From assembly GCF_030384885.1 (NCBI RefSeq), contig NZ_CP128613.1: a DNA stretch of 64,000 bases. One strand, given 5' to 3'. Shown one piece after another: positions 19,078 through 32,224 of this stretch. How positions within the stretch are numbered: position 1 is the stretch's first letter; every line of letters starts with the position of its first letter. Source of the DNA: Escherichia coli (lineage in GTDB: Bacteria > Pseudomonadota > Gammaproteobacteria > Enterobacterales > Enterobacteriaceae). The notes under the pieces were generated by a model. That model saw only the letters and a list, made by a program, of their open reading frames with translations, searched no databases and was not told where the DNA came from. The position numbers were made by a program, and so were the translations under genes.

Positions 19078-19971
19078 ATGAAACCGCAGGTTTATCACGT
19101 CGATGCTTTTACCTCACAACCGTTTCGCGGCAATTCTGCCGGTGTTGTTTTCCCCGCCGATAATCTCAGTGAAGCGCAAATGCAGCTTATTGCCCGGGAG
19201 CTAGGCCATTCGGAAACTGCTTTTCTGCTGCACAGCGACGACAGCGATGTGCGCATCCGCTACTTTACGCCAACGGTTGAAGTACCGATTTGTGGTCACG
19301 CGACAGTAGCTGCGCACTATGTACGTGCAAAGGTGTTAGGTTTAGGAAATTGCACGGTCTGGCAAACGTCACTGGCAGGAAAACATCGCGTGACTATCGA
19401 AAAGCACAACGATGATTATCGTATTTCGCTGGAACAAGGTACGCCGGGCTTTGAGCCACCGCTGGAAGGTGAAACACGTGCGGCGATTATCAACGCGCTT
19501 CATCTCACTGAGGACGATATTCTGCCAGGCTTGCCAATTCAGGTGGCAACCACAGGACACTCAAAAGTGATGATCCCACTGAAATCTGAAGTGGATATCG
19601 ACGCCCTTTCGCCTGACCTTGCTGCGCTGACCGCAATCAGCAAGCAGAATGGCTGCAATGGTTTCTTCCCTTTCCAGATCCGCCCTGGCAAAAATGAAAC
19701 TGATGGTCGCATGTTCTCACCTGCGATTGGTATTGTGGAAGATCCGGTGACCGGGAATGCCAATGGACCGATGGGCGCATGGTTAGTACATCACAACTTA
19801 CTACCCCACGATGGCAGCGTGTTGCGTGTTAAAGGCCATCAGGGGCGCGCACTGGGGCGTGACGGCGTGATTGATGTGACGGTGACAATTCGAGATAACC
19901 AACCGGAGAAAGTCACCATTTCTGGCACAGCGGTGATTCTTTTCCATGCTGAATGGGCCATTGATTTTTGA
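19078..19971 (+). CDS. yddE: PhzF-family isomerase-like protein, 297 aa
   Basis: Length and sequence (MKPQVYHVDAFTSQPFRGN) with conserved neighbourhood. Confidence 0.85.
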   Translation: MKPQVYHVDAFTSQPFRGNSAGVVFPADNLSEAQMQLIARELGHSETAFLLHSDDSDVRIRYFTPTVEVPICGHATVAAHYVRAKVLGLGNCTVWQTSLAGKHRVTIEKHNDDYRISLEQGTPGFEPPLEGETRAAIINALHLTEDDILPGLPIQVATTGHSKVMIPLKSEVDIDALSPDLAALTAISKQNGCNGFFPFQIRPGKNETDGRMFSPAIGIVEDPVTGNANGPMGAWLVHHNLLPHDGSVLRVKGHQGRALGRDGVIDVTVTIRDNQPEKVTISGTAVILFHAEWAIDF

Positions 19972-19979
19972 TACCGTTG

Positions 19980-20058
19980 CCTGATGCGCTTCGCTTATCA
20001 GGCCTACAACCGGGCTAATGTGGGCCGGTTGTAGGCGTTTACGCCGCATCCGGCCCCT
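19980..20058. repeat. REP/BIME cluster between convergent yddE and nhoA
   Basis: tgcctgatgcgcttcgcttatcaggcctacaa and gtaggcgtttacgccgcatccggcc, classic REP consensus pieces. Confidence 0.7.
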
Positions 20059-20066
20059 GGCACAAA

Positions 20067-20912
20067 CTATTTCCCCGCCTCCGGATGCGTATCAAACGCC
20101 GCCATCACCAACGCCAGTTCATCCACAGTAAAGCCATGCTTTGCGTCATCTACGCCCAGACCAAACTGCTCCTGCATCACGGCATATAACGACGCCACAT
20201 CCGGTAGATTTCGCTGCTCCACTGCATGTCCATTTTCATAATGGGTGAAATGAAAATTGGTCAGTGTCAGTTTGCCACCGTCCGGCAAATGGCGGCACAT
20301 CAGCAAATGATGGCGAAAATGCGATTGCGGCCAGTGCGCCGACCAGAAATTCCCCATCACATAATCACTTTGTTGTTGTTCACAGAGATCAAAACGGTAC
20401 ATCGACTGCCAGTGCTGATGATGATTAAACTGCAACACCCAATCATCACCCTCCTGTAACAACCGATACTCTCCGTGTGGCGTGATCTGCACGAGATCGG
20501 GAACTAAACGAATCGGCGCGGTTAGCGTCTGTCCACCGAAACCGACATCAGCAATCCATTTTTCCCCTTCCAGTTCCACCAACAACAAACGATGGGTGCG
20601 CGGCGGTAATGCTGGCGGATTTGATAACACTACGCGCCCTAACAAGCTGCGAACGTTAAACCCCAGCTCGCGTAACACCCGCTCAAACACGCCATTCTGC
20701 TCAAAACAGTAACCGCCACGATGGGCTGTCACCAGTTTCTCTTCCAGCGATTGATCATCAAGCTGTATTTCCCTCGGCAGCAAAACGTCGAGGTTTTCAA
20801 ACGGAATGGTGCAATTGTGTTTCAGGTGTAATGCACGAAGCGTATCGATATTGACCGCAGCAGCTCCCGACCAGTTAATGCGGGCAAAATAATGATTCAG
20901 AATGGGCGTCAT
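20067..20912 (-). CDS. nhoA: Arylamine N-acetyltransferase / N-hydroxyarylamine O-acetyltransferase, 281 aa
   Basis: Length and sequence (MTPILNHYFARINWSG; Cys in GGYCFEQN). Confidence 0.88.
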   Translation of the reverse strand: MTPILNHYFARINWSGAAAVNIDTLRALHLKHNCTIPFENLDVLLPREIQLDDQSLEEKLVTAHRGGYCFEQNGVFERVLRELGFNVRSLLGRVVLSNPPALPPRTHRLLLVELEGEKWIADVGFGGQTLTAPIRLVPDLVQITPHGEYRLLQEGDDWVLQFNHHQHWQSMYRFDLCEQQQSDYVMGNFWSAHWPQSHFRHHLLMCRHLPDGGKLTLTNFHFTHYENGHAVEQRNLPDVASLYAVMQEQFGLGVDDAKHGFTVDELALVMAAFDTHPEAGK

Positions 20913-21086
20913 CAGGCGTTTCCGTTTGTGGTTTTCTCAATTTATAACCTGGAATAGACGCCGCACCGGCTATTTTGTGCGATCGCGGACATGCATCACG
21001 TTCGCAAATCGCCAATCCCGTTAATTTCGTTACTTATTGCGTTACGAGCTACGCTTTTAAAACACCCTTCTTAGCGAGGCGATACC

Positions 21087-21656
21087 GTGAGCCGATTCAT
21101 CCCTGTCGAATTACACCATGCCAGCCGTCTGTTAAATCATGGCCCCACAGTTTTGATAACCAGTTTCGATGATAAATCTCAGCGACGTAATGTGATGGCT
21201 GCGGCCTGGTCGATGCCGGTAGAGTTTGAACCGCCACGTGTGGCGATAGTGGTAGATAAATCGACATGGACCAGGGAGTTGATTGAGCGTAACGGTAAAT
21301 TTGGCATCGTTATCCCGGGCGTTGCGGCGACTAACTGGACGTGGGCGGTGGGAAGTGTGTCGGGTCGTGAAGAAGATAAATTTAATTGCTATGGCATTCC
21401 GGTTGTGAAAGGTCCGGTGCTTGGATTGCCGCTGATTGAAGAAAAATGTCTGGCATGGATGGAGTGTCGATTGCTACCAGCGACTTCTGCGCAAGAAAAA
21501 TACGATACGCTATTTGGCGAAGTGGTATCGGCAGCGGCAGACGCACGAGTATTTGTCGAAGGCCGCTGGCAGTTTGATGATGACAAACTCAATACACTAC
21601 ATCATTTAGGTGCTGGCACGTTTGTTACCAGCGGCAAGCGAGTCACCGCGGGCTAA
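21087..21656 (+). CDS. yddH: Flavin reductase-like domain protein, 189 aa, GTG start
   Basis: Sequence and neighbourhood match. Confidence 0.8.
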   Translation: MSRFIPVELHHASRLLNHGPTVLITSFDDKSQRRNVMAAAWSMPVEFEPPRVAIVVDKSTWTRELIERNGKFGIVIPGVAATNWTWAVGSVSGREEDKFNCYGIPVVKGPVLGLPLIEEKCLAWMECRLLPATSAQEKYDTLFGEVVSAAADARVFVEGRWQFDDDKLNTLHHLGAGTFVTSGKRVTAG

Positions 21657-21721
21657 AGAATCATATGCAGCAACCAAGTTGCTTAAGCAATTTTCCATAT
21701 GAGTTAAAAACATATTTTATC

Positions 21722-21922
21722 TCACGATTGCATATTTTTAGTGAAGATTAATTTATCCTCACCAACATCATAGTAATTGCGTATTATCGCCTCATTGATA
21801 AAGCCCTGTTTTGTATAAAATGCGCGGGCGGCACTAAAATCGACATGGCTGGAGGTCTCTACTAAAAGTAGTCTTGCGTGATTGGGACAAGTCAAGAAAA
21901 AGCAGTTTTGCAGTTTTTTATT
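21722..21922 (-). pseudogene. C-terminal remnant of a GNAT-family acetyltransferase (about 66 codons, no credible start)
   Basis: Hand translation of the minus strand gives ...ARLLLVETSSHVDFSAARAFYTKQGFINEAIIRNYYDVGEDKLIFTKNMQS*, bounded upstream by an in-frame TGA; GNAT motif-B-like (FYTKQGF). Confidence 0.4.
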
Positions 21923-22047
21923 TCAGGGCACAGTTGCGAAAATTGAATACCGTATGGACTAATGTGAGAAAATTCCGAGGTATGACTGTTTTGATATAGT
22001 GGACAATCAAGCGTCTCGAATTAACAATGAATTTCAGGTGCCAAGCC

Positions 22048-22683
22048 TTACAATTTGTAGCATGACGGATATAGGACAACATTAGGAAATCGGACAGAAA
22101 ATTCATTATAATAAAATGACAACTTATCTCTTTCTCTCACGTTCTGTGAAATTTCACAAAAGTATAAACTGAGCCAATATGCCTTTATATATAAAAAATA
22201 CTCATGTTTATTATTATCGGAAAAAGCCAAGATTTGATTAAGGCCATCAAAAATATCTTTCTCATGATCTATATGTACTCTTGATGATTTTACAATATCT
22301 TTTAATTCGCGGTAAATCTTATTAAATAGCGCAACCGATTCACTGTTATTGAATCCATAGTTGATAAAAAGACATGATTTAACATCCGATATTAGTAAGT
22401 CGTCATAATCTATCTCAATTCCACACAATTTCACGATATACTCAGCTATAGTATTACTTTGCAAGGACTCAACAACTGACAGTAAAACAGATGGATGCAA
22501 TAATATTTCAAGAAGACTTCTGTCGATATTTTTATACACATTTATTGCAAATTCATCACTCGTCCCATCGATGATGTCAGATATTAAAAAAAATACATAC
22601 TCGGGGAGTTCATACCACATATTAATTTTAATAATATCACGACACATATCTTCTAACTGTTGTAATCTATTACCTTTATTCAT
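22048..22683 (-). CDS. Hypothetical protein, 211 aa, AT-rich, no recognisable domain
   Basis: Clean ORF directly downstream of, and co-oriented with, the ISAs1 transposase; acidic soluble protein; occupies the position where K-12 has pptA (from memory). Confidence 0.55.
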   Translation of the reverse strand: MNKGNRLQQLEDMCRDIIKINMWYELPEYVFFLISDIIDGTSDEFAINVYKNIDRSLLEILLHPSVLLSVVESLQSNTIAEYIVKLCGIEIDYDDLLISDVKSCLFINYGFNNSESVALFNKIYRELKDIVKSSRVHIDHEKDIFDGLNQILAFSDNNKHEYFLYIKAYWLSLYFCEISQNVRERDKLSFYYNEFSVRFPNVVLYPSCYKL

Positions 22684-22839
22684 AACAACCTTAATATTAT
22701 ATGGAATCTTTGGCGGAATCTTCTTACTCCGCGGAATTTTACTAAAGCTTTGTTAGATAAAATATGCGTATCACTGACAGCATGTTATTAATTCACTCTG
22801 GTGTTATTTGACAAAAATACCCCCTCCTGTTTTCACCTC

Positions 22840-24135
22840 TTTGTATTTATGATAATTAAGGGGGGGTGCTAATTTAATATAAACACCCAGGGCAAGATTA
22901 CGAAAGCCCGCTCCCCGCAAGGACTGACGCCAGGTAGTTTCTGTCCATGGCTGCTTTTCGCATCTTACGCCTTAACCCTGCCCTGGATACCTTATCATTC
23001 GTCAAAATATTAATAGCAATGTGCCGTATCCCTGAAAATAATTCTGCTGCGTTTCCTCTTCTTATTTTGCTGTCGTCTTCATTCATTACCACGTCCAGAC
23101 GCCAGTGCAGCTTATTCTCCATGTGCCAGTGGTTTCGGATTGCTGTGGCGAACTTCTCTGCGGTTAAATCAGCAGAACTGATATAATATCTGACCGTCAT
23201 TTCTGGCTCTTTCTTTTGTTCTGCTATTATTGACCGAAAGGAGACTGCCACGCATAATTTCTTCAGACCTTTCCATTCAAACGTGAAATCAATAAGTTCA
23301 TCAGGGACATCGCAAACAATGTGAAGACGGATTTCTTCTCTGCCGTGACTCTTTTCACTCATTGCGTAACTGTCATGCTCTGGATTATTTAATTCTTTCA
23401 GCGGAAATTTTTCCTCGAAGGCTTTATTTAGCCGCCCCTGGTTTCCTTTTACAGCGAATAAATAATCACCTCCCTGTTTTTGTATCTTCTCTGCAATATC
23501 TTTCTGGCAACCCATCGCATCAGTTGTGATGATTTTTTCTTTAATATCCAGCATGTTAAGAAGTTCTGGGATAGCAGTAATCTCATTGGATTTCTCATCC
23601 GTCTTGATCTGTCCGATGACCAGACTGTGCATTGTTGAGAACGCACTAATGACATGAATCGCTCCCCTGCGGCGACTCTTGTCATAAGAGTGCCGGAGCG
23701 TTTTTCCATCAATTGCAATGACGCCTTTATCATCTGAAGAATGGCAGTCACGCATCCAGTTAATAAAGCACTCGTGAAATTTTGCAGGACTGATACAGGA
23801 TACAACTCTGGCAATCGTATCGTGAACAGGAATACCATTTTCAAAATCACCATATTGCTTCAAAAAATCGAGATGTGTTTCCCAAAAATCCTCTATATCT
23901 TCCCAACCTTCTGCACCCGAAATAACGGCGCAAATAGTCAACAGTAGAATATCCGATAATTTATGCTCCACTTTCCAGGCTTGTCTGTAATCGGGGATAA
24001 TAGAAATATGTTCCATCAATTTTTTAAGTACCATTTTGTTCTCCTTAATTATGTAAGGAGTATTTGATCATGTATAAGCAATAAAAAACAGCTTCAGGTA
24101 ATGAGGAATATCTCAATTTTTAAACATAAAATGCG
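22840..24135 (-). mobile_element. ISAs1-family insertion sequence (H-repeat element); ends approximate
   Basis: Contains the 378-aa H-repeat transposase; element ends not mapped. Confidence 0.45.
22898..24034 (-). CDS. ISAs1-family (H-repeat-associated) transposase, 378 aa
   Basis: Characteristic sequence [32 protein letters not shown]...[20 protein letters not shown]. Confidence 0.85.
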
Positions 24136-24203
24136 AATTGTTTAGTACAAAAAAGCAGCGTTAAGTGAGTAGGCCACCGGAACCTCCCCGACAGCCTCTC
24201 GCA

Positions 24204-24237
24204 GAACCGTACGTGAAACTCTCGCTTCATACGGCTC
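24204..24237 (-). other. Group II intron domain V (catalytic hairpin)
   Basis: GAGCCGUAUGAAGCGAGAGUUUCACGUACGGUUC: 10-bp stem GAGCCGUAUG/CGUACGGUUC with G-U pairs and the AGC triad. Confidence 0.8.
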
Positions 24238-24240
24238 CCG

Positions 24241-25758
24241 TCAGGCAAACGCGCTTCCTGGTCCTGCTTTCCAGTGGGCAAACAACTCCGGCTTCTCTTT
24301 TGACAGCCTTTCCATTAGCTGACACGCCTTCGTCTTTCTATACCGCAGGGTTTTATATTTCTTTCTCGCCCACGCAATCAGCGTCAGATTAATATATCTG
24401 CATACTTTCTTCATCGCTGATTTGTGGTATCTCGCGTAATAATTCAGCCACCCCGATATTATCGGATTCAGCCACTTCGCAATATCTTCGAGACTCATCT
24501 CCACCCTGCGTCTGATCCACAGTTTCCTGAGTTTTCCAATCATGCCTTTCTGCGCAAGGTTACTCGCCGCCGGGCTGAAACTCGTAAAGAGGTTTCCCCG
24601 CCGGTGGTTGCGTGCTCTTCGCGCTCTGAACGTATACCCCAGAAAATCAAACTGCACTGTTTCATGGTTCGCCTGTCGTTCGCTGTCTTTGCAGTAAACT
24701 ATTTTCGTTTTCTCCGGATGTAATTCCAGTCCACATTCCTGAAAACGTTTTGCCAGCTTATTCAGTAATTCCTCTGCCTGTTGTTTACTGCCACAATGAA
24801 TTAATCCATCATCTGCATAACGGCACCAGGGAATTTCCGGATAATGTAACGTCAGCCATTTATCAAACACATAGTGCAGAAATAAATTCGCCAGTACCGG
24901 GCTGATGACTCCACCCTGTGGCGTACCTTTATTTCTTTCCTTCAGTGTTCCATCCGGCATCTGCACCGGCGCTGTCAGCCACCGGCGAATAGACAGTCTT
25001 ACCCATTTATCCGCACAATGTTTATCTACTGCCCTGAGTAATAAATCGTGGGGGATATTATCGAATAACCCTTTAATATCAAACTCAAGACACCAGTCGT
25101 ATTGCCAGCAACGTTTTCTGGTGACTGCTATTGCATCCAGCGCTGATTTTCCATGCCGGTATCCGTATGAATCATTCAGGAAATAACGCTCCACTAATGG
25201 TTCAAACGTTACCAGCACCGTCATCTGCGCTATTCGATCGCTTACTGTCGGTATTCCTAAAAGTCTTTTGCTGCCATCCTTCTTCGGAATTTCCACCGCA
25301 CGCACTGGCGGCGGCATCCAGCTTCCCGACGATAACCTGTTCCAGATTTTGTACAGATTTCCTTTCAGATCCCGCTCAAAATCTTTCAGCGTCTGGTTAT
25401 CCACTCCGGCAGCTCCGGCATTCGCCTTTATCCGCCGGTACGCTTCCACCACATGCAATTTACTGACCTGAAACGGTTTTGTCTGTTCACACACAGCCTC
25501 CTCCTGCCTACAGTTGGGCTGTGATGCAGACTGCCCGACGCTGTCCCTTCGCTCCACGTTCATTACAAACGCTTCCTCACTACTACGAACAGCTCTGCCC
25601 CGGTTTCGCACATCGATACTCTCATACTCATAATTTCGGTTATTTGTATTTCTCTCTTGACATTGCGACGACCGGTTCCCGTAGTTCCTGCAAAGAGCCC
25701 GATACAGCGTCATGCCTGCTATACACCGGACACCATTCACGCAGCATTCGGAATTCAC
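24241..25758 (-). CDS. Group II intron reverse transcriptase/maturase (no obvious endonuclease domain); true start probably internal
   Basis: RT motifs including KANAGAAGVDNQTL, GTPQGGVISPVLANLFL and the YADD box (CRYADDGLIHC), then maturase X (PIISGWLNYYARY); no HNH Cys/His pattern at the C-terminus. Confidence 0.8.
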   Translation of the reverse strand: MNSECCVNGVRCIAGMTLYRALCRNYGNRSSQCQERNTNNRNYEYESIDVRNRGRAVRSSEEAFVMNVERRDSVGQSASQPNCRQEEAVCEQTKPFQVSKLHVVEAYRRIKANAGAAGVDNQTLKDFERDLKGNLYKIWNRLSSGSWMPPPVRAVEIPKKDGSKRLLGIPTVSDRIAQMTVLVTFEPLVERYFLNDSYGYRHGKSALDAIAVTRKRCWQYDWCLEFDIKGLFDNIPHDLLLRAVDKHCADKWVRLSIRRWLTAPVQMPDGTLKERNKGTPQGGVISPVLANLFLHYVFDKWLTLHYPEIPWCRYADDGLIHCGSKQQAEELLNKLAKRFQECGLELHPEKTKIVYCKDSERQANHETVQFDFLGYTFRARRARNHRRGNLFTSFSPAASNLAQKGMIGKLRKLWIRRRVEMSLEDIAKWLNPIISGWLNYYARYHKSAMKKVCRYINLTLIAWARKKYKTLRYRKTKACQLMERLSKEKPELFAHWKAGPGSAFA

Positions 25759-26050
25759 CCGTAAATTAATCCCGGCGGTATCATGAAACCTCCGGTTTTG
25801 ATGTCACTTAGGACTAACGACGTTTCAACACAGGTTCGGGTTTACTCATCTCACTGTATCTCACATAGGATCAGATCTCGTCTGATCGTTCCCCCTGCGC
25901 TCACTACCATGGCTCTTTACCACAGCAGCCGGGGTTGTTTGGGACCGACTTCCGACAGCAGATCCCGGTGGGCCTGCCACCATCTCTTCACAAGCTTATG
26001 CTTATTACATGCAAAACGTCCCGTTTTGCATCTTTGTGCCTACGGCACAC

Positions 26051-26129
26051 CGTGATCTTTCCCTGGTCCCTGTCCCGGATTGTAGTACCGGTGCCAGTTG
26101 TAGTGCAGTTCGGATTCGTCGTCATACTG
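26051..26129 (-). pseudogene. Short Rhs core-end remnant (QYDDESELHYNWHRYYNPGQG...), intron inserted at its 3' end
   Basis: Nucleotide and protein similarity to the intact core end at 27150-27230 ([21 protein letters not shown]); preceded by an in-frame stop. Confidence 0.5.
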
Positions 26130-26201
26130 CTAGCCCGGATGGCGGAGCAGTTGCTCTAGTCACTCAGAATATTGTAATAGTGATAGAGTGCAGTGCCGGT
26201 T

Positions 26202-26600
26202 TCAATATCCTAACGCTGGTCTTTTGCCTGTATTAACTGATTTAGCTGGTTTGCTACATATTAATGCCTTCAGATTTTCCCTTTCCTTGTCTGTGATACT
26301 GTCGCAAACCCTACTAGCCCATTCTACTTCACTCTTCTCCAGGCATTCTATTTTCTTATTGCTCATTGTTCTAATGTTTGGTGTTGCATCTCCATTTAAT
26401 AACATCCATGTTTCATTTTTCTTCATAAAACATCTTCCATTATGTTCAAAGATATTAGGTGTGAATATATTATCAGAATCCCATGTTACGACTTGCTCGA
26501 GGGCTATATTATCTTGATAGTCCATGCCAGCATTATAATAATCACAAGATATAATTATCATGGAAATAATTATCACTAATATCTTCCCAAGCATTTCCAT
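26202..26600 (-). CDS. Putative Rhs immunity protein, lipoprotein-like, 132 aa
   Basis: ATG directly abuts the Rhs stop (TAAATG); N-terminal signal with lipobox-like IIISC; AT-rich; the corresponding K-12 gene would be ydcD. Confidence 0.6.
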   Translation of the reverse strand: MEMLGKILVIIISMIIISCDYYNAGMDYQDNIALEQVVTWDSDNIFTPNIFEHNGRCFMKKNETWMLLNGDATPNIRTMSNKKIECLEKSEVEWASRVCDSITDKERENLKALICSKPAKSVNTGKRPALGY

Positions 26601-28314
26601 TTACTTTACCTCTTGAAATTCAAATGGGAATCCAGTGAAAGGACCTTTAGGCATAATATATCTTTGATATCCATAAAGCTCACCGAGCACTTGTAGGCTT
26701 ATAGGCGCATTTGTATTCATAGAGGGGTTGTTAAACCCGCACGCCTCAAAAATCATGTTCGTTCGGCTAAAACAATTATTTAAAACAGGAAGAGGCCCGA
26801 GGTTAATAGTTTTTAGTTTTTTATTAAGGTCTATTGCCTTATTCATCATACATTGTTCTTCTTCATCTGTTGTATCTATTATCCAAATCCAGGTATCTCT
26901 GCGGGGTTGCATCTTTTTAAAATAATCAGAGACAGAGGCTCCCATCTCATCCCCAGTTCCCGAACTCATTAATCCATATCGATTTGCCGCCGCAGCATGC
27001 CCAAAAGGATTATCAGGAACGGGGCCGTTACCTATTATCATAGTACTAAGCCCTAATGGATCAACGTGTTGCACTGGATTCAGCGGATATTGGTACAGAT
27101 TCCATCCCCCCTTCAGCCCAATCGGGTCCTGGATGATATACCTCCCCTGCAACGGATCGTAGTACCGGTTCCGGTTATAGTACAGCCCTGATTCCTCATC
27201 ATGCTGCTGCCCCGGCAGACGGTATGGCTGGTGCAGGTGATGCGGATTCTCCTCATTCAGCAGGTTGCCCCATTCATCATATTCCGCGCTCCACACCGTT
27301 TTGCCGTCTTCGCTGATGAGCGCCAGCGGCAGGCCCCGGTGGTCGCAGTGGTAAAGATGAACTTTTCGCGCCGGTGTGTATTCCGGCTCCACCTGTCTGG
27401 CCAGTTGCTCCACCGTCAGCCCGCACTGCGCAAGCCACGCCCGGCTTTCACTGCTCACGCGGTCTGCCCGGATTTCTTCCTCCAGTCTGTCCAGCAGCCG
27501 CACCAGTTCAGCCGGAAATACCACACCATGACCGTCCTCGCTCCCTTCCTGCTGTAACTTCTCCGCCAGGCTCCGGCGCTGCGCTTTCTCCAGTTCGGTC
27601 ACGTCTGTTTCGATGCGGATGAGCGGTGTGAAGCTTCCCGGCTCGTATACCGTCTGGATACGCGTGGTGTCGGTCTGTACCGTCGCCAGCCTGTCGCCGT
27701 CCCACCCGTACCACGTTACCTCCGGTTTACGCGACAGCGACATCCACCCCGTCAGGTCACGTACCCGCCGCCACACCCGTTTCCCCGTCCGGCGGCCCAG
27801 CGGGTCGTAGAGGTAGCGGCTCTCGACCAGTGGCTCGCCATGCTGTATCCGCGTGTAGAACACCAGGCGGTGCTGGCTGTCGTAGTGGTAGTGGTGGGTC
27901 CGCTCGTCGTCCGTCCGTATCACACCCGCCGGGATGCGGTCCGTCTTCTCCGTCAGCCTGCCGTATTCATCGTGGCGGTACCAGTGCATCATCGCGTATC
28001 TGTAAGCGGATATCAGAAGGCGCTTTCCAGCCGGGGCCAAAAATCCCCACAGGCGCAGGCGTCTTCGTCCGGTAGCTGCTGTAGGTGCGGGAGAGAATGA
28101 ACGGCAGCGGGCCGGGCAGCGCAAGGTCCGTCTCGCCGGGCAGCACCTTCGCCCCCAGCAGCGGATTTACCGGGTTGCCCGAAGTCATCCCGCCCGGACA
28201 CACCGAGCACGCCACGCCGGTGGGCGCGCCAATTCTTACACCTGCCGAACCCTGGACAATGGGACCGCCATACTGAGTCATATCTCCCTGACGCGCCGCT
28301 GGTTTTCCGCTCAT
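26601..28314 (-). pseudogene. rhsE: Rhs element E core gene, internally deleted/frameshifted: PAAR N-terminus joined out of frame to the 3' core plus C-terminal toxin tip
   Basis: ORF 27967-28314 encodes the Rhs N-terminus MSGKPAARQGDMTQYGGPIVQGSAGVRIGAPTGVACSVCPGG; ORF 26601-28124, in another frame, encodes the core end through DPIGL/DPLGL and a ~150-aa tip. Confidence 0.75.
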
Positions 28315-28380
28315 GATTCAATTCCTTCTTCTGTTTATTTTTAATGCTTGTTTGTTACTGAATACCGAACAGGTACGGGA

Positions 28381-29013
28381 TCAGTACTCTCTCATATCCG
28401 GCGTATCCTGCTTTTCATCAGGGGTCTTCGGTGGGGATTTCGAGGCTGCACAGTTCCAGTTAATCAACAGTGAGTCACCATTAACCTGCTCCTTACCCTG
28501 CAAATGAATTTTTGTGCCGTTGAGAAAAATTTGTCCGTCCTTAGTCAGCACCAGCCTTGCCTTACCACAGCAGAGTTCCAGATGCTCACCGGCGGAGTAA
28601 ATCGCGGTCTGCCCGGTATCATCCTTTTTCGTTTTACCAACGGTGAAGGTAACGTTATTTCCGACTTTGACGTCATAACCCAGCCCGACCATCAACGACT
28701 TATGCAAACCGATCTGCGAGGACTGCATCAGGGCCACCGAGGTGTTCATAATGCCACCTACCGTCGTCTGATACGCCACGCCCACGGTCAGCGCACGAAC
28801 AAGTCCAATCGTTTCCACCTGAACAGAGCCCACTTTAATGATCTGGTTACTGCCCACCGTCTCTATCTGGTTAACACCCACCGTCTGTATCTGATTGTTG
28901 GTAACCGCAATCATCTGATTGTTGCCGATGGTCTCAGCATGGTTGTTTATCACATCCGTGGTGCGGTTATTCAGCACCTCGGTACCGCCCCACCCTGATA
29001 ACATGATCTGCAC
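28381..29013 (-). pseudogene. VgrG C-terminal fragment (gp5-like beta-helix repeats), 5'-truncated
   Basis: 8-residue periodic repeats (NQMIAVTNNQIQTVGVNQIETVGSNQIIKVGSVQVETIG); no N-terminal VgrG domains upstream. Confidence 0.55.
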
Positions 29014-29438
29014 ATTGCCATCTTAACGTCGTTAAACACTGGCTTAATAGTGGATATTTCAAATTAGGAATTTATTAAATTCACCTGATGAATATCATAA
29101 GCAAATAGCATAGAAAATAATGACAACTCCCCCGAGGGGACCATTTCCAAAGCACTGCACCACCACCTGGTGCCCGGATGATCTTGCTTCAGTGGTAAGA
29201 GTACCTGATTCATTGTTCCCAAAATGGTGTTTTCCCCTGCCCCTGCAATAACGTGCAGCTCTCACGTGATAATCTATTGATTAGGTTATATTAAGAATCA
29301 ATATTTGAAATACATCCATTTTCTTGAATAAATCAACATATTTATTTATCAATTGCTGTTTTAGCTCTGACTCATCAAACTCTCCATATTTTTCCTACAG
29401 ATAATCGCGAATAAATACAGAGAACGCCATTTATCCTT

Positions 29439-29651
29439 TTAGCATACCTGCCGGATATTTTTATTTGTATTAATATTAATTGCATCTCCAACTCCGAGCA
29501 TATCCATCATTAAAGACATTTTGAGATTATAGAATGCCTGTGATAACAACTGAAACATCTGCACAATGTGAATAGTTAGTTTCTTTTCAGAGGAAATGAA
29601 ATAGACAAGCTGAATGAAAGAGAGAGTGATATAAATTAAAAAACATAACAT
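29439..29651 (-). CDS. Small hypothetical protein, 70 aa, AT-rich (position of K-12 yncH)
   Basis: 70-aa ORF in the yncG-rhsE interval; no motif recognised. Confidence 0.35.
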   Translation of the reverse strand: MLCFLIYITLSFIQLVYFISSEKKLTIHIVQMFQLLSQAFYNLKMSLMMDMLGVGDAININTNKNIRQVC

Positions 29652-29726
29652 GAATCTAATTAATTACGTCCATCATTGTGGATAAAGTTACTGAATAATA
29701 AATAACATAATCTTCTGGTATCCCAC

Positions 29727-30344
29727 TCAAATAATTTCATTCCTTTTTAATACTTCTTGTAATTTCGGTATCTGACATACAGCATCAGCGATCGCACTGA
29801 TATTCGTGGCATTATCCTGAAACCATTCATGCCCAGGCCCCCATGTGCGCATAGTGCAAAGATAACAGTCCACCAGCGTTAGTTGCTCACCAAACGCATA
29901 AGGTTCAGCGGTCAATTGTGAATTCAGCCAGATATAAAGCGATTTACGATATTCAATAACATTCTTCTTTAACTGTTCGGGTGCGTCAGGAGCCCAACGC
30001 TCAGGGTAATCGGCGAAAGTGAATGTTGGATAGACATTAGCAACCAGCCAGACCAATAGCCGTTGAAACTGCTGACGTTCGGCGCGCCTAACCGGTGGCG
30101 CAAGGTCCGGGCGACGATCGAGAACCATCAATGCAATCGCCGCTGTCTCCGTCATAATCTCGTCATTTTCCAGCGCCAGTGTCGGAATCTGACACAACGG
30201 GTTGAGGGTTTTCAATAACTCGCGTGAAGTTCCCTCGTGGTCAAAACCACTGACATCAACGAACTGATAAGGAATATCAGCCAGTGATAGCATCAGCTCA
30301 CTGATTGTAGAGCCCCATCCGGGTACGCCATACACCTTAATCAT
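29727..30344 (-). CDS. yncG: Glutathione S-transferase homolog, 205 aa
   Basis: GST-like N-terminus MIKVYGVPGWGSTISELMLSLADIPYQFVDV and neighbourhood. Confidence 0.85.
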   Translation of the reverse strand: MIKVYGVPGWGSTISELMLSLADIPYQFVDVSGFDHEGTSRELLKTLNPLCQIPTLALENDEIMTETAAIALMVLDRRPDLAPPVRRAERQQFQRLLVWLVANVYPTFTFADYPERWAPDAPEQLKKNVIEYRKSLYIWLNSQLTAEPYAFGEQLTLVDCYLCTMRTWGPGHEWFQDNATNISAIADAVCQIPKLQEVLKRNEII

Positions 30345-30610
30345 ATGCCCCTCACAATCTTTTAAAGATTAAGTGTAGGACAGTACACAGGTTAACCAGC
30401 AAAAGGATTTGTCATTTTTTCGTCAGTTGTATTATTCCCCTTCAGGATTGTAAGGGGATGTTTTGCATCGTTTATCGATAACGGGTAGGATGCTGCGCCG
30501 ATAGTTTTATACCCATAAAGAATAATGGTGATAACTATCATCGCCAGGATGAATAAACATTGTTCATGGCAACTTATATGACTTTTTCATTCAAGCAATC
30601 AGGGAGAGCA

Positions 30611-32110
30611 ATGAGTAAACACGACACCGACACTTCAGATCAACACGCCGCGAAACGTCGCTGGCTTAATGCCCACGAAGAGGGTTATCACAAAGCGATG
30701 GGCAATCGCCAGGTACAGATGATCGCCATTGGCGGCGCGATTGGCACCGGCTTGTTTTTAGGTGCAGGAGCCCGACTGCAAATGGCGGGGCCAGCACTGG
30801 CACTGGTCTATTTAATCTGCGGCCTGTTTTCATTTTTTATTCTGCGTGCATTGGGTGAGCTGGTGCTACACCGCCCTTCCAGTGGCAGTTTTGTCTCTTA
30901 TGCCCGTGAGTTTTTAGGAGAGAAAGCCGCTTACGTTGCAGGCTGGATGTACTTCATTAACTGGGCGATGACGGGGATTGTCGATATCACCGCCGTCGCA
31001 CTGTATATGCATTACTGGGGCGCATTTGGTGGTGTACCGCAGTGGGTCTTTGCGCTCGCTGCGCTGACCATCGTTGGCACGATGAACATGATTGGTGTGA
31101 AATGGTTTGCGGAGATGGAGTTCTGGTTTGCGCTTATTAAAGTGCTCGCCATCGTGACCTTTTTGGTCGTGGGTACAGTGTTCCTCGGTAGCGGTCAGCC
31201 GCTAGATGGCAACACCACAGGATTTCATTTAATTACCGATAATGGCGGTTTCTTTCCCCACGGTTTACTGCCTGCGCTGGTGTTGATTCAGGGTGTAGTG
31301 TTTGCTTTTGCCTCCATTGAAATGGTTGGAACAGCTGCCGGAGAATGTAAAGATCCGCAGACCATGGTGCCTAAAGCGATTAACAGCGTGATTTGGCGGA
31401 TTGGCCTGTTTTACGTCGGCTCCGTAGTGTTGCTGGTTATGTTATTGCCGTGGAGCGCGTATCAGGCAGGGCAAAGTCCGTTCGTGACGTTCTTTTCCAA
31501 ACTGGGCGTGCCTTACATCGGCAGCATTATGAACATTGTGGTGCTGACTGCTGCCCTCTCCAGCCTGAACTCAGGTCTGTACTGCACCGGGCGTATTCTG
31601 CGCTCAATGGCGATGGGCGGCTCTGCACCAAGCTTCATGGCGAAAATGAGTCGTCAGCATGTGCCGTATGCCGGGATCCTGGCGACGCTGGTCGTTTATG
31701 TTGTTGGCGTATTCCTTAACTATCTGGTGCCGTCGCGCGTATTTGAGATTGTGTTGAACTTCGCATCTCTGGGAATTATCGCCTCGTGGGCGTTTATCAT
31801 TGTTTGCCAGATGCGTCTACGTAAAGCGATTAAAGAAGGCAAAGCAGCGGATGTCAGTTTTAAACTCCCAGGTGCGCCCTTTACGTCGTGGCTGACATTA
31901 CTGTTTTTACTGAGCGTCCTGGTGCTGATGGCGTTCGATTACCCGAACGGGACTTATACCATCGCTGCGCTGCCGATTATTGGCCTTCTGCTGGTTGTAG
32001 GTTGGTTTGGTGTGCGCAAACGCGTTGCAGAAATTCACAGCACTGCGCCAGTCATCGAGGAAGATGAAGAAAAACAGGAAATTGTGCTTAAGCCAGAGAC
32101 GGCGAGTTAA
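30611..32110 (+). CDS. ansP: L-asparagine permease (APC family), 499 aa
   Basis: Starts MSKHDTDTSDQHAAKRRWLNAHEEGYHKAM with SD agggagag; start trimmed from the longer ORF. Confidence 0.9.
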   Translation: MSKHDTDTSDQHAAKRRWLNAHEEGYHKAMGNRQVQMIAIGGAIGTGLFLGAGARLQMAGPALALVYLICGLFSFFILRALGELVLHRPSSGSFVSYAREFLGEKAAYVAGWMYFINWAMTGIVDITAVALYMHYWGAFGGVPQWVFALAALTIVGTMNMIGVKWFAEMEFWFALIKVLAIVTFLVVGTVFLGSGQPLDGNTTGFHLITDNGGFFPHGLLPALVLIQGVVFAFASIEMVGTAAGECKDPQTMVPKAINSVIWRIGLFYVGSVVLLVMLLPWSAYQAGQSPFVTFFSKLGVPYIGSIMNIVVLTAALSSLNSGLYCTGRILRSMAMGGSAPSFMAKMSRQHVPYAGILATLVVYVVGVFLNYLVPSRVFEIVLNFASLGIIASWAFIIVCQMRLRKAIKEGKAADVSFKLPGAPFTSWLTLLFLLSVLVLMAFDYPNGTYTIAALPIIGLLLVVGWFGVRKRVAEIHSTAPVIEEDEEKQEIVLKPETAS

Positions 32111-32118
32111 TTGCAAAA

Positions 32119-32146
32119 TTGCCCGGCTATGTGCCGGGCAAATTTA
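32119..32146 (+). terminator. Intrinsic terminator after ansP
   Basis: Stem ttgcccggc/gccgggcaa with loop tatgt, followed by a short T-run. Confidence 0.5.
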
Positions 32147-32224
32147 GATTACTGACGAAGGTGTGCCGCATGCGGCGTGATAAAAGTCAGGCAAGTCTCT
32201 CCGTTTTCACCCTCGCCATATCTA

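Follow-up and report, generated by a model that had tools for sequence, protein, structure and literature searches.

A probable, recently inactivated type VI secretion cargo island at the rhsE site of Escherichia coli, with a retained C-terminal tip and immunity-type gene

The window is the whole stretch of E. coli DNA that was analysed, 64,000 nucleotides in length (NZ_CP128613.1), and its positions 26051-29013 correspond to the E. coli yncH / vgrG-rhsE / ISAs1 locus. The segment carries a remnant of vgrG, two pieces of an rhs gene, a small intact lipoprotein gene, an orphan fragment of an Rhs core end and the border of an ISAs1/H-repeat element (Table 1). The same chromosomal site in K-12 MG1655 holds rhsE (b1456), ydcD and the H-repeat gene ydcC, with a core of the same family, and is flanked as in the window by ansP-yncG-yncH on one side and by ISAs1/H-rpt, yddH and nhoA on the other. 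In K-12, rhsE is a textbook pseudogene.

Table 1. Features of the vgrG-rhsE locus in the window, with reading frames listed first; L003 denotes the locus sequence of strain 2013C-4282
Feature	Position	Strand	Basis
ORF, 210 aa (vgrG 3' part)	28381-29013	minus	
ORF, 115 aa (rhs 5' part)	27967-28314	minus	
ORF, 507 aa (rhs 3' core and toxin tip)	26601-28124	minus	
Junction J2, 1871 bp missing	28980..28986 (breakpoint 28980-28984)	.	window vs L003 alignment
vgrG remnant, codons 503-702 of 702-aa VgrG	28381..28984	(-)	100% identical to L003 11211-11814 of 2013C-4282
rhs 5' remnant, codons 1-112 (N-terminal domain, start of DUF6531)	27979..28314	(-)	RHS_core and DUF6531 matches
Junction J1, 2507 bp missing inside rhs	27976..27982 (breakpoint 27978-27980)	.	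window vs L003 alignment
rhs 3' core remnant, codons 948-1258 (last YD repeats, hyperconserved core end, DPLGL cleavage motif)	27048..27980	(-)	RHS_core, Rhs_assc_core, PF03527
C-terminal toxin tip, 148 aa and stop; predicted permuted NlpC/P60 (YiiX/TseH-like) Cys-His hydrolase	26601..27047	(-)	
Immunity-type lipoprotein gene, intact, 132 aa, WP_000425544.1	26202..26600	(-)	lipobox, synteny
Second (orphan) Rhs core-end stub, ~86 bp, reading PG, stop, QYDDESELHYNWHRYYNPGQG	~26065..26150	(-)	sequence reading
ISAs1/H-rpt boundary element	22898..26064	(-)	Pfam and Rfam matches

In the vgrG remnant, the C-terminal region of the protein survives together with a portion of the gp5-type beta-helix. 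Pfam Gp5_trimer_C was matched over profile positions 35-111 (E 2.3e-12), the domain being partial, while the gp27-like hub (Phage_GPD) and the OB fold (Phage_base_V) are absent, both having been located inside the deleted 1871 bp. In the intact VgrG of strain 2013C-4282, Phage_GPD spans 28-327, Phage_base_V 384-450 and Gp5_trimer_C 467-576. The initial 10 residues of the 210-aa reading frame are read-through into former intergenic DNA. The initial annotation, made from the sequence alone, had described a 5'-truncated VgrG beta-helix fragment, which the Gp5_trimer_C match and the alignment to the intact allele bear out.

The two rhs reading frames matched complementary ends of the NCBIfam RHS_core model (NF041261; 1261 positions). 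The 115-aa frame covered positions 1-112 (E 1.9e-71) and the 507-aa frame positions 949-1261 (E 8.9e-202), positions 113-948 being absent from the window, and no single frame encodes a complete YD-repeat shell; the total score of the window rhs was far below the model cut-off of 2000 bits. The N-terminal part also matched DUF6531 (Pfam, E 1.1e-16), and the core end matched Pfam RHS PF03527 (E 1.3e-17) and Rhs_assc_core TIGR03696 (E 2.9e-24), closing with VDPLGL before a unique tip of 148 residues. The frames differ, as the offset between 28314 and 28124 is 190, which leaves a remainder of 1 on division by 3. That difference had been noticed earlier, together with an overlap of the frames at 27967-28124; the former stands, whereas the overlap is open-reading-frame read-through on both sides of a single junction at 27978-27980. 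Past the junction, the 5' remnant continues out of frame until the stop at 27967, and the initial 48 residues of the 507-aa frame are likewise out-of-frame sequence, so that true Rhs coding is confined to codons 1-112 (27979-28314) and codons 948-1406 (26604-27980). The N-terminus had also been called PAAR-like. It is indeed an Rhs N-terminal domain, the clade-specific domain that mounts on VgrG being present by the RHS_core match at 1-112 and by DUF6531, but the PAAR label is weakly supported, with models below threshold (Pfam PAAR_motif 17.1 bits against a cut-off of 27; NCBIfam E 0.024).

The deletions were mapped against strain 2013C-4282, which has a near-identical genome and carries at the same site an intact VgrG of 702 aa and an intact Rhs of 1406 aa (WP_000103441.1 / WP_105267598.1, a vgrG-rhsE island). 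Alignment to this allele gave three collinear blocks of 99.4-100% identity, separated by stretches of 2507 bp and 1871 bp that the window lacks, and the DNA was 100% identical on either side of both junctions. J1 removes rhs codons 113-947 plus 2 nt, which causes a frameshift, and shows the microhomology GTA; J2 removes vgrG codons 1-502 and 366 bp upstream, with the microhomology TA. The internal deletion and frameshift first proposed for rhsE are therefore confirmed, both by the split of the HMM match and by the base-level alignment to the intact 2013C-4282 allele.

Directly behind the rhs stop codon (TAA at 26603-26601) is the ATG of the 132-aa gene at 26600, exactly as the initial annotation had read it. 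The signal peptide of the encoded protein ends in a lipobox of the form [LVI][ASTVI][GAS]C (MEMLGKILVIIISMIIIS followed by CD, by sequence reading), cut as IIS/C; the residue at +2 is Asp, and the protein has four more conserved Cys. Cys19 and Asp20 were invariant in the homologues. We infer that the protein is a Sec/SPII lipoprotein which Asp+2 would retain in the inner membrane, facing the periplasm, and the four conserved Cys would fit periplasmic disulphide bonding. Strains 2013C-4282 and TOK-001 encode an identical protein, from DNA with two synonymous differences, and the protein sequence is unchanged across strains though the neighbouring rhs DNA differs by ~5%.

This gene and the tip had been proposed as a cognate pair of immunity gene and toxin, and conserved synteny supports the pairing. 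Tip homologues with 84% and 60% identity, in Salmonella and in a metagenome contig, are each directly followed by a homologue of the 132-aa protein (77% and 44% identity, respectively) in which the lipobox Cys is conserved. As far as sequence can indicate, the putative toxin domain recurs on several delivery proteins with the immunity gene adjacent and co-varying, which is the arrangement of a polymorphic-toxin pair. The module of tip and immunity gene was present in 542-566 of 5,426 complete E. coli genomes (~10%), mostly on full-length Rhs. It is annotated there just as 'RHS element core protein / hypothetical protein'.

The tip had been proposed for an HMM search against domain families, and this returned no family match for the tip itself: there was no match in Pfam at E up to 10, the TseH-clade model DUF6695 included, and NCBIfam, PDB phmmer and PDB profile searches were all negative. 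Comparison with K-12 YiiX by hhalign gave a probability of 0.3%, and a Foldseek search of the tip model against the PDB gave no significant match (best E 0.93). The AlphaFold model itself has a pLDDT of 90.9 and a pTM of 0.86. A total of 167 remote homologues were found, and all six of the long carriers checked were Rhs, teneurin-like YD or Big-repeat YD proteins. In an alignment of 38 sequences with 25-84% identity to the tip, N13, G16, H17, G25, G30, R50 and C92 were invariant. The invariant His therefore precedes the invariant Cys, at a spacing of 75 residues in the tip and 68-89 across the family, and three of the 38 relatives weakly matched Lnb_N/DUF4105 (best E 4e-4).

The His-before-Cys order is shared with TseH (VCA0285) of Vibrio cholerae and with the permuted YiiX/YaeF-like enzymes, although sequence identity to these is just 6-9%; TseH is a stand-alone T6SS effector, whereas the domain described here is an Rhs tip. 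By description, the tip also resembles Tox-Act1 of Salmonella, a T6SS toxin of the permuted NlpC/P60 type that is related to DUF4105 and TseH and has a catalytic His/Cys pair (PMC12994826). Its His and Cys are 108 residues apart (H43, C151), compared with 75 in the tip, and its immunity protein Imm-Act1 has two transmembrane helices where the window protein is a predicted lipoprotein. Tox-Act1 is a phospholipase that is toxic in the periplasm only, phospholipase activity of TseH was obtained in one of two assay formats, and the Tox-Act1 homologue tables hold Rhs-fused proteins as well as one E. coli Rhs with a DUF4105-like domain at its end (PMC12994826). The tip would accordingly be placed among the circularly permuted NlpC/P60 Cys-His hydrolases of the YiiX/TseH type, as a predicted uncharacterised branch of a known enzyme superfamily, with His17 and Cys92 as its likely catalytic pair. 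Its probable target is an envelope component, either lipid or peptidoglycan, on which it would act from the periplasm.

More tentatively, and with somewhat less than even confidence, the tip and its 167 or more relatives may form a distinct, unnamed clade of permuted NlpC/P60 toxins which Rhs/YD shells deliver, which act from the periplasm on acyl or amide bonds of envelope lipid, lipoprotein or peptidoglycan, and which are neutralised by a disulphide-bonded inner-membrane lipoprotein. The cytoplasm is usually given as the site of action of Rhs-fused toxins (PMC12994826), so that a periplasmic target would be atypical and such a clade, if real, an exception to the usual cytoplasm-acting Rhs cargo. 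If the assignment were confirmed, the recently described lipid-targeting NlpC/P60 T6SS toxins (Tox-Act1, TseH) would extend to Rhs-delivered cargo. The analysis provides a testable assignment for both proteins: a permuted NlpC/P60 hydrolase acting likely through H17/C92, a periplasmic target and lipoprotein immunity.

Beyond the immunity gene, a second short core-end remnant had been reported, and its presence stands. Its extent is corrected to ~26065-26150 with an in-frame stop, as 26051-26064 are the terminal bases of the ISAs1 left end (AGGGAAAGATCACG), which cuts the stub off. The stub is 75% identical to the main core end, and the homologous sequence in TOK-001 opens a complete orphan module. 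The ISAs1 copy encodes a transposase at 22898-24034 (Pfam DDE_Tnp_1) and is interrupted by a group II intron (~24169-26050, ltrA at 24242-25564), whose first base is 26050 (GTGTG). The intron was matched by Rfam group-II-D1D4-2 (93 bits) and Intron_gpII (63 bits) and by Pfam RVT_1 and GIIM. The same site is without the intron in K-12 and in strain 300709, and a search of the available literature on the group II intron in H-rpt found nothing relevant.

Intact islands, both that of 2013C-4282 and vgrG2-rhsE of EHEC EDL933 (PMC7216683), have the gene order of the window, with vgrG, rhs and a small lipoprotein-type immunity gene. They are full length, whereas 4.4 kb are gone from the window copy, which can make neither protein. 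The K-12 rhsE is likewise decayed and likewise retains a 3' core, a tip and a small downstream gene, but the tip and the downstream gene (ydcD) are different ones, the H-rpt is without a group II intron, and a single 4.4-kb deletion (equivalent to L003 8948-13386) took the whole of vgrG together with the 5' half of rhs; in the window there are two deletions and both gene ends are kept. The rhsE knockouts of K-12 and of other strains differ from that of the window. The locus is a case of ordinary gene decay, one more example of a familiar pattern.

We consider it probable that the segment, which occupies the E. coli yncH-ISAs1 (rhsE) site, is an auxiliary T6SS cargo island lately inactivated in the window strain. 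The T6SS core genes for which a search had been suggested were found in the relative: 2013C-4282 has a complete core cluster at aspV, with tssA, B, C, E, F, G, H, J, K and M, an IcmH/DotU (TssL-type) gene, two hcp, vgrG and rhs. For the window strain, of which 64 kb were seen, a T6SS is inferred from this relative. Because 2013C-4282 keeps the complete cluster, the decay is recent. The earlier description of the island as a fossil is misleading, as both deletions are private to the strain and very recent, and only about ten substitutions separate the window from 2013C-4282 in the remaining ~60 kb, the ISAs1 copy excluded. In the intact form, as seen in 2013C-4282, vgrG encodes the spike and rhs a 1406-aa YD-repeat shell protein mounted on it by its N-terminus; the last 148 residues would be the toxin, released at DPLGL, and the next gene would encode its cognate immunity protein. 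Two deletions with 2-3 bp of microhomology have broken vgrG and rhs and left the tip and the immunity gene intact. The locus can now supply neither the spike nor the encapsulating shell, and the toxin would therefore be undeliverable. The immunity gene may have been kept as protection against relatives firing the same toxin, while the tip, which cannot be delivered, probably does no harm in the cytoplasm and has just remained in place.

The locus could instead be alive, with the 3' rhs fragment and its tip, together with the orphan stub, serving as a recombination reservoir that restores the tip to a full-length Rhs, or with an internal start giving a working toxin from the fragment. The 933 bp of core 3' end and tip correspond in kind to the 'C-terminal tips' downstream of rhs genes, which have been proposed as a driver of rhs variability (PMC3032704); a second rhs in 2013C-4282 has a related core end (83% identity), and the rhsD-type cores of other strains are identical to the J1 flank. 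Recombination of this kind is not evidenced at the locus, however, and 83% identity to the other rhs core in the relative is poor for homologous recombination. By established Rhs/VgrG biology, a T6SS cannot be loaded with a fragment from which two thirds of the shell, the N-terminal domain and the VgrG partner are missing. A promoter and terminator scan of 25900-29500 gave counts equal to those of shuffled sequence, so the promoter evidence also speaks against a live locus, which we regard as unlikely.

The origin of the two deletions was also considered. Neither J1 nor J2 was found in the 5,426 complete E. coli genomes, and J1 was not found among the GTDB species representatives. In a spread sample of genomes, about two thirds of those with a match have the vgrG 3' end contiguous with rhs, and deletion alleles of the window, 300709 or 3908 type did not occur in this unbiased sample of 60. 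Breakpoints of the window, 300709 and 3908 alleles fall within ~60 bp of one another; this cannot be read as a deletion hotspot, as the latter two came from searches with the window's junction (ascertainment bias). A degenerate direct repeat between the rhs breakpoint zones was also rejected, the best 50-nt window identity being 0.50 (offsets 2480-2529) against a background with a 99.9th percentile of 0.48 and a maximum of 0.60.

The sequence CGGTACC reads across both J1 and J2, and the flanks before joining were each without GGTACC (GGTAGA/AGTACC and GGTATC/GCTACC). Simple independent microhomology deletions do not predict it. Engineered deletions with KpnI linkers were rejected, since there are no extra bases and the native flanks account for all of GGTACC. 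A single non-random event rather than two independent slips might create the site at both junctions, either by serial template switching in replication or by a promiscuous restriction enzyme acting at near-cognate GGTACC-like sites, followed by end joining. J1 and J2 are separated by 1 kb within a single operon, the strain otherwise shows about ten substitutions in 60 kb relative to 2013C-4282, and a same-register hexamer at two junctions would arise by chance in ~1 of 4096 cases. The observation is post hoc, however, the GTA and TA microhomologies are ordinary in illegitimate recombination, and the motif is not seen at other rhsE deletion alleles; a single event is held to be improbable. That the deletions are assembly artefacts, such as a collapse across multi-copy rhs/vgrG repeats in a strain that is really intact, is very unlikely: rhs cores and vgrG are indeed multi-copy (the J1 flank is 100% identical to rhsD in many genomes, and the vgrG segment of 2013C-4282 matches three places in its own genome), the junctions were seen in no other public genome searched and the common CGGTACC is odd, but a collapse would join inside long shared sequence, whereas microhomology is just 2-3 bp with 100% identical unique sequence up to both sides of each junction, there are no N's or added bases, and comparable real deletions occur in the RefSeq complete genomes TOK-001, 300709, 3908 and K-12.

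With the deletions taken as real, the window strain and 2013C-4282 form a natural near-isogenic pair of an intact attacker and a disarmed, presumably still immune relative, between which direct competition is possible.

The locus lies at the classical E. coli rhsE site, between the genes ansP, yncG and yncH and an ISAs1 transposase, and it is a well-known kind of object. The family matches of its open reading frames were far beyond chance. The 1261-position NCBIfam model RHS_core was divided between a 115-aa ORF (E 1.9e-71) and a 507-aa ORF (E 8.9e-202), which together also matched DUF6531, RHS and RHS_repeat of Pfam, while Gp5_trimer_C matched a 210-aa ORF over profile positions 35-111 (E 2.3e-12). 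The rhs N-terminal and 3' core pieces therefore occupy separate ORFs, as the initial annotation had described, and the immunity-like gene does begin on the base after the Rhs stop. PAAR HMMs matched the Rhs N-terminus MSGKPAARQGDMTQY (28270-28314, minus strand) below threshold only; this sequence appears similar to the prePAAR motif AARxxDxxxH, Tyr taking the place of His.

Features of the rhsE-site locus and collinear blocks shared with L003, the intact locus of strain 2013C-4282
Feature	Window position	Strand	Evidence or counterpart
vgrG-derived ORF, 210 aa	28381-29013	-	Pfam Gp5_trimer_C
rhs 5' ORF, 115 aa	27967-28314	-	NCBIfam RHS_core positions 1-112
rhs 3' ORF, 507 aa	26601-28124	-	NCBIfam RHS_core positions 949-1261
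Immunity-type ORF, 132 aa	26202-26600	-	ATG directly after rhs TAA (26603-26601)
Second core-end stub, ~86 bp	26065-26150	-	Sequence reading: ...PG, stop, QYDDESELHYNWHRYYNPGQG
Group II intron, ~1.9 kb	~24169-26050	-	5' GTGTG at 26050; Rfam D1-D4, D5/D6 matches
ltrA, 440-aa RT/maturase gene	24242-25564	-	Inside group II intron
Block 1	19679-27980		L003 1-8303
Block 2	27978-28984		L003 10808-11814, 100%
Block 3	28980-36000		L003 13681-20701

The flanking sequences were 100% identical to those of 2013C-4282 (NZ_CP027579.1). At this site, that genome encodes a VgrG of 702 aa and an 'RHS element core protein' of 1406 aa, both in intact form, and it shares the 132-aa gene. Alignment with this intact allele resolved three collinear blocks separated by two deletions. 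The first removed 2507 bp of rhs, namely codons 113-947 and two further bases, and these two bases shift the reading frame. The second removed 1871 bp, comprising codons 1-502 of vgrG together with 366 bp upstream of the gene, which confirms the suspected 5' truncation of a VgrG with a gp5-type β-helix; the Phage_GPD hub (28-327) and OB fold (384-450) of the intact protein fall within the lost part. The internal rhs deletion was thus correctly anticipated, whereas the reported overlap of its two frames is only read-through on both sides of a single junction: the 507-aa ORF opens with 48 residues, and the 210-aa ORF with 10, that do not represent genuine coding sequence. Microhomology amounted to GTA (3 bp) at the rhs junction and TA (2 bp) at the vgrG junction, with zero inserted bases, and no extended homology was found between the two breakpoint zones of the rhs deletion.

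Both junctions read CGGTACC (27976-27982 in rhs, 28980-28986 in vgrG). Each deletion created a KpnI/Acc65I hexamer that is absent from the parental flanks in 2013C-4282 (GGTAGA/AGTACC and GGTATC/GCTACC), and two junctions would have a common hexamer in register with a probability of ~1 in 4096, for an observation made post hoc. As the deletions are only 1 kb apart and the two genomes are otherwise near-clonal, both could stem from a single complex event, such as serial template switching or breakage at near-cognate sites. The shared heptamer may instead be due to chance, or may reflect sequence-directed breakage. Linker-based engineering was ruled out because the junctions contain no extra bases.

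Over the whole 64 kb, ~50 substitutions separate the window from 2013C-4282, of which only ~10 lie outside the ISAs1 copy; none of 5,426 complete E. coli genomes spans either junction, and the GTDB species representatives also lacked the rhs junction. Both deletions are hence recent and private to the window strain, so that the "fossil" type VI secretion (T6SS) cargo island first proposed stands as a cargo island but is no old fossil. The suggested search for T6SS core genes revealed a complete cluster in 2013C-4282, beside tRNA-Asp, with tssA, B, C, E, F, G, H, J, K and M, an IcmH/DotU (TssL-type) gene, tagH, vasI, two hcp, one vgrG and another rhs; a frameshift affects the VasL-domain gene only. 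Judging from this relative, the window strain would still possess a T6SS. Given the complete cluster and the recent deletions, the island most likely still functioned as an auxiliary cargo module until just before the window strain diverged. Relative to 2013C-4282, the window also has a 6-bp in-frame insertion (ATCCTC) at 9077-9082; the gene that contains it lies downstream of ompC and encodes a hypothetical protein.

The toxin tip, the 148 residues past DPLGL, had no sequence match in Pfam, NCBIfam or PDB, and HMM search did not provide the toxin-family name that had been sought; by sequence, it lies outside every named family. An exhaustive search returned 167 remote homologues, and all six long carriers examined were Rhs/YD-repeat proteins of varied architecture. 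Across a 38-sequence alignment, N13, G16, H17, G25, G30, R50 and C92 were invariant, but only three of these 38 relatives matched Pfam Lnb_N/DUF4105, and weakly. The AlphaFold model was confident (pLDDT 90.9, pTM 0.86); against this, Foldseek gave no significant match, and neither a profile search of the PDB nor hhalign with K-12 YiiX yielded one. The tip probably adopts a circularly permuted NlpC/P60 fold, with His before Cys, and is probably a new, uncharacterised member of this known superfamily; it would act on the envelope as a Cys-His hydrolase or acyltransferase. Tox-Act1, a T6SS effector of the permuted NlpC/P60 type with a relationship to DUF4105 and TseH, is toxic in the periplasm only, has phospholipase activity, and has Rhs-fused proteins among its homologue tables (PMC12994826, 2026). 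Membership of the tip in the Tox-Act1 clade is not established, since the His-Cys spacing of Tox-Act1 is longer (108 residues, against 75 in the tip and 68-89 in its family) and its immunity partner is not a lipoprotein but carries two transmembrane helices.

The 132-aa protein begins with a signal peptide and lipobox, MEMLGKILVIIISMIIIS followed by CD, which places Asp at +2, the classical inner-membrane retention signal of E. coli lipoproteins. The lipobox Cys, this Asp and four further Cys were invariant across its homologues. The pairing with the tip recurs: a Salmonella genome encodes a tip homologue (84% identity) directly followed by a 132-aa homologue (77%), as does a metagenome contig (60% and 44%), and the module is present in 542-566 of the 5,426 complete genomes, usually on full-length Rhs. 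In strain TOK-001 the protein is identical (two synonymous changes), with the adjacent rhs DNA differing by ~5%. That the immunity protein would be an exported lipoprotein, probably with disulphide bonds, speaks for toxin action in the periplasm, which fits the fold assignment; Rhs cargo is generally described as acting in the cytoplasm (PMC12994826), and a periplasmic site would be unusual by comparison.

The two deletions destroyed vgrG and rhs and left the core end, tip and immunity gene intact. With the hub and OB fold lost, two thirds of the shell missing and the reading frame broken, established Rhs/VgrG biology predicts that nothing could be loaded or fired. The stranded tip would probably be harmless in the cytoplasm. 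The lipoprotein may still be useful against relatives bearing the same common toxin, which would explain its retention.

A second core-end remnant downstream, also noted initially, was recovered as a stub that shares 75% identity with the main core end. At the same position TOK-001 has a complete orphan toxin/immunity module, and the stub is homologous to its start. The stub is truncated by the ISAs1/H-rpt left end AGGGAAAGATCACG (26051-26064), and a complete-looking group II intron is inserted ~2 nt inside that end; the intron-less site is seen in K-12 and strain 300709. Position 26051, where the locus had been taken to start, is the intron/exon boundary, as the intron 5' end sits at 26050. 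The ISAs1 and intron unit occurs again in the T6SS-cluster locus of 2013C-4282 (L008 15284-18460), where 3.2 kb align at 98% identity. There it lies downstream of the rhs linked to the T6SS and abuts an rhs 5' fragment of 12 codons, MSVKPAARQGDM, so that the composite recurs at rhs loci. The window ISAs1 (ydcC) copy (23048-24099) holds 40 of the ~50 substitutions, a clustering which suggests that it was replaced or gene-converted from another ISAs1, and it is also non-identical to the copy at the 2013C-4282 T6SS locus. Between yddH and ISAs1, a 636-bp hypothetical ORF of low GC (~31%; ~22050-22685, WP_032184207.1) occupies the position of pptA in K-12 and TOK-001, and pptA appears absent from the window lineage.

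At least five independent rhsE inactivations with differing junctions were found (the window, TOK-001, the 300709 type, 3908 and K-12). K-12 MG1655 has one 4.4-kb deletion removing vgrG and the 5' half of rhs, unlike the two of the window, whereas TOK-001, 300709 and 3908 carry internal rhs deletions at other junctions, that of 300709 being common to 11 genomes. Clustering of breakpoints near those of the window is uninterpretable, as the alleles were found by searching with its own junction. Intact alleles appear to be the majority, since the vgrG 3' end was contiguous with at least the first 248 rhs codons in 41 genomes from a spread sample of 60 matching ones. In the 300709-type allele (L004 3679-5268, the locus of that strain), the two pieces annotated as rhs pseudogenes meet without a gap (5094/5095), and each has a length divisible by three; the internal deletion of this allele may thus have kept the frame and left a possible 'mini-Rhs' ORF.
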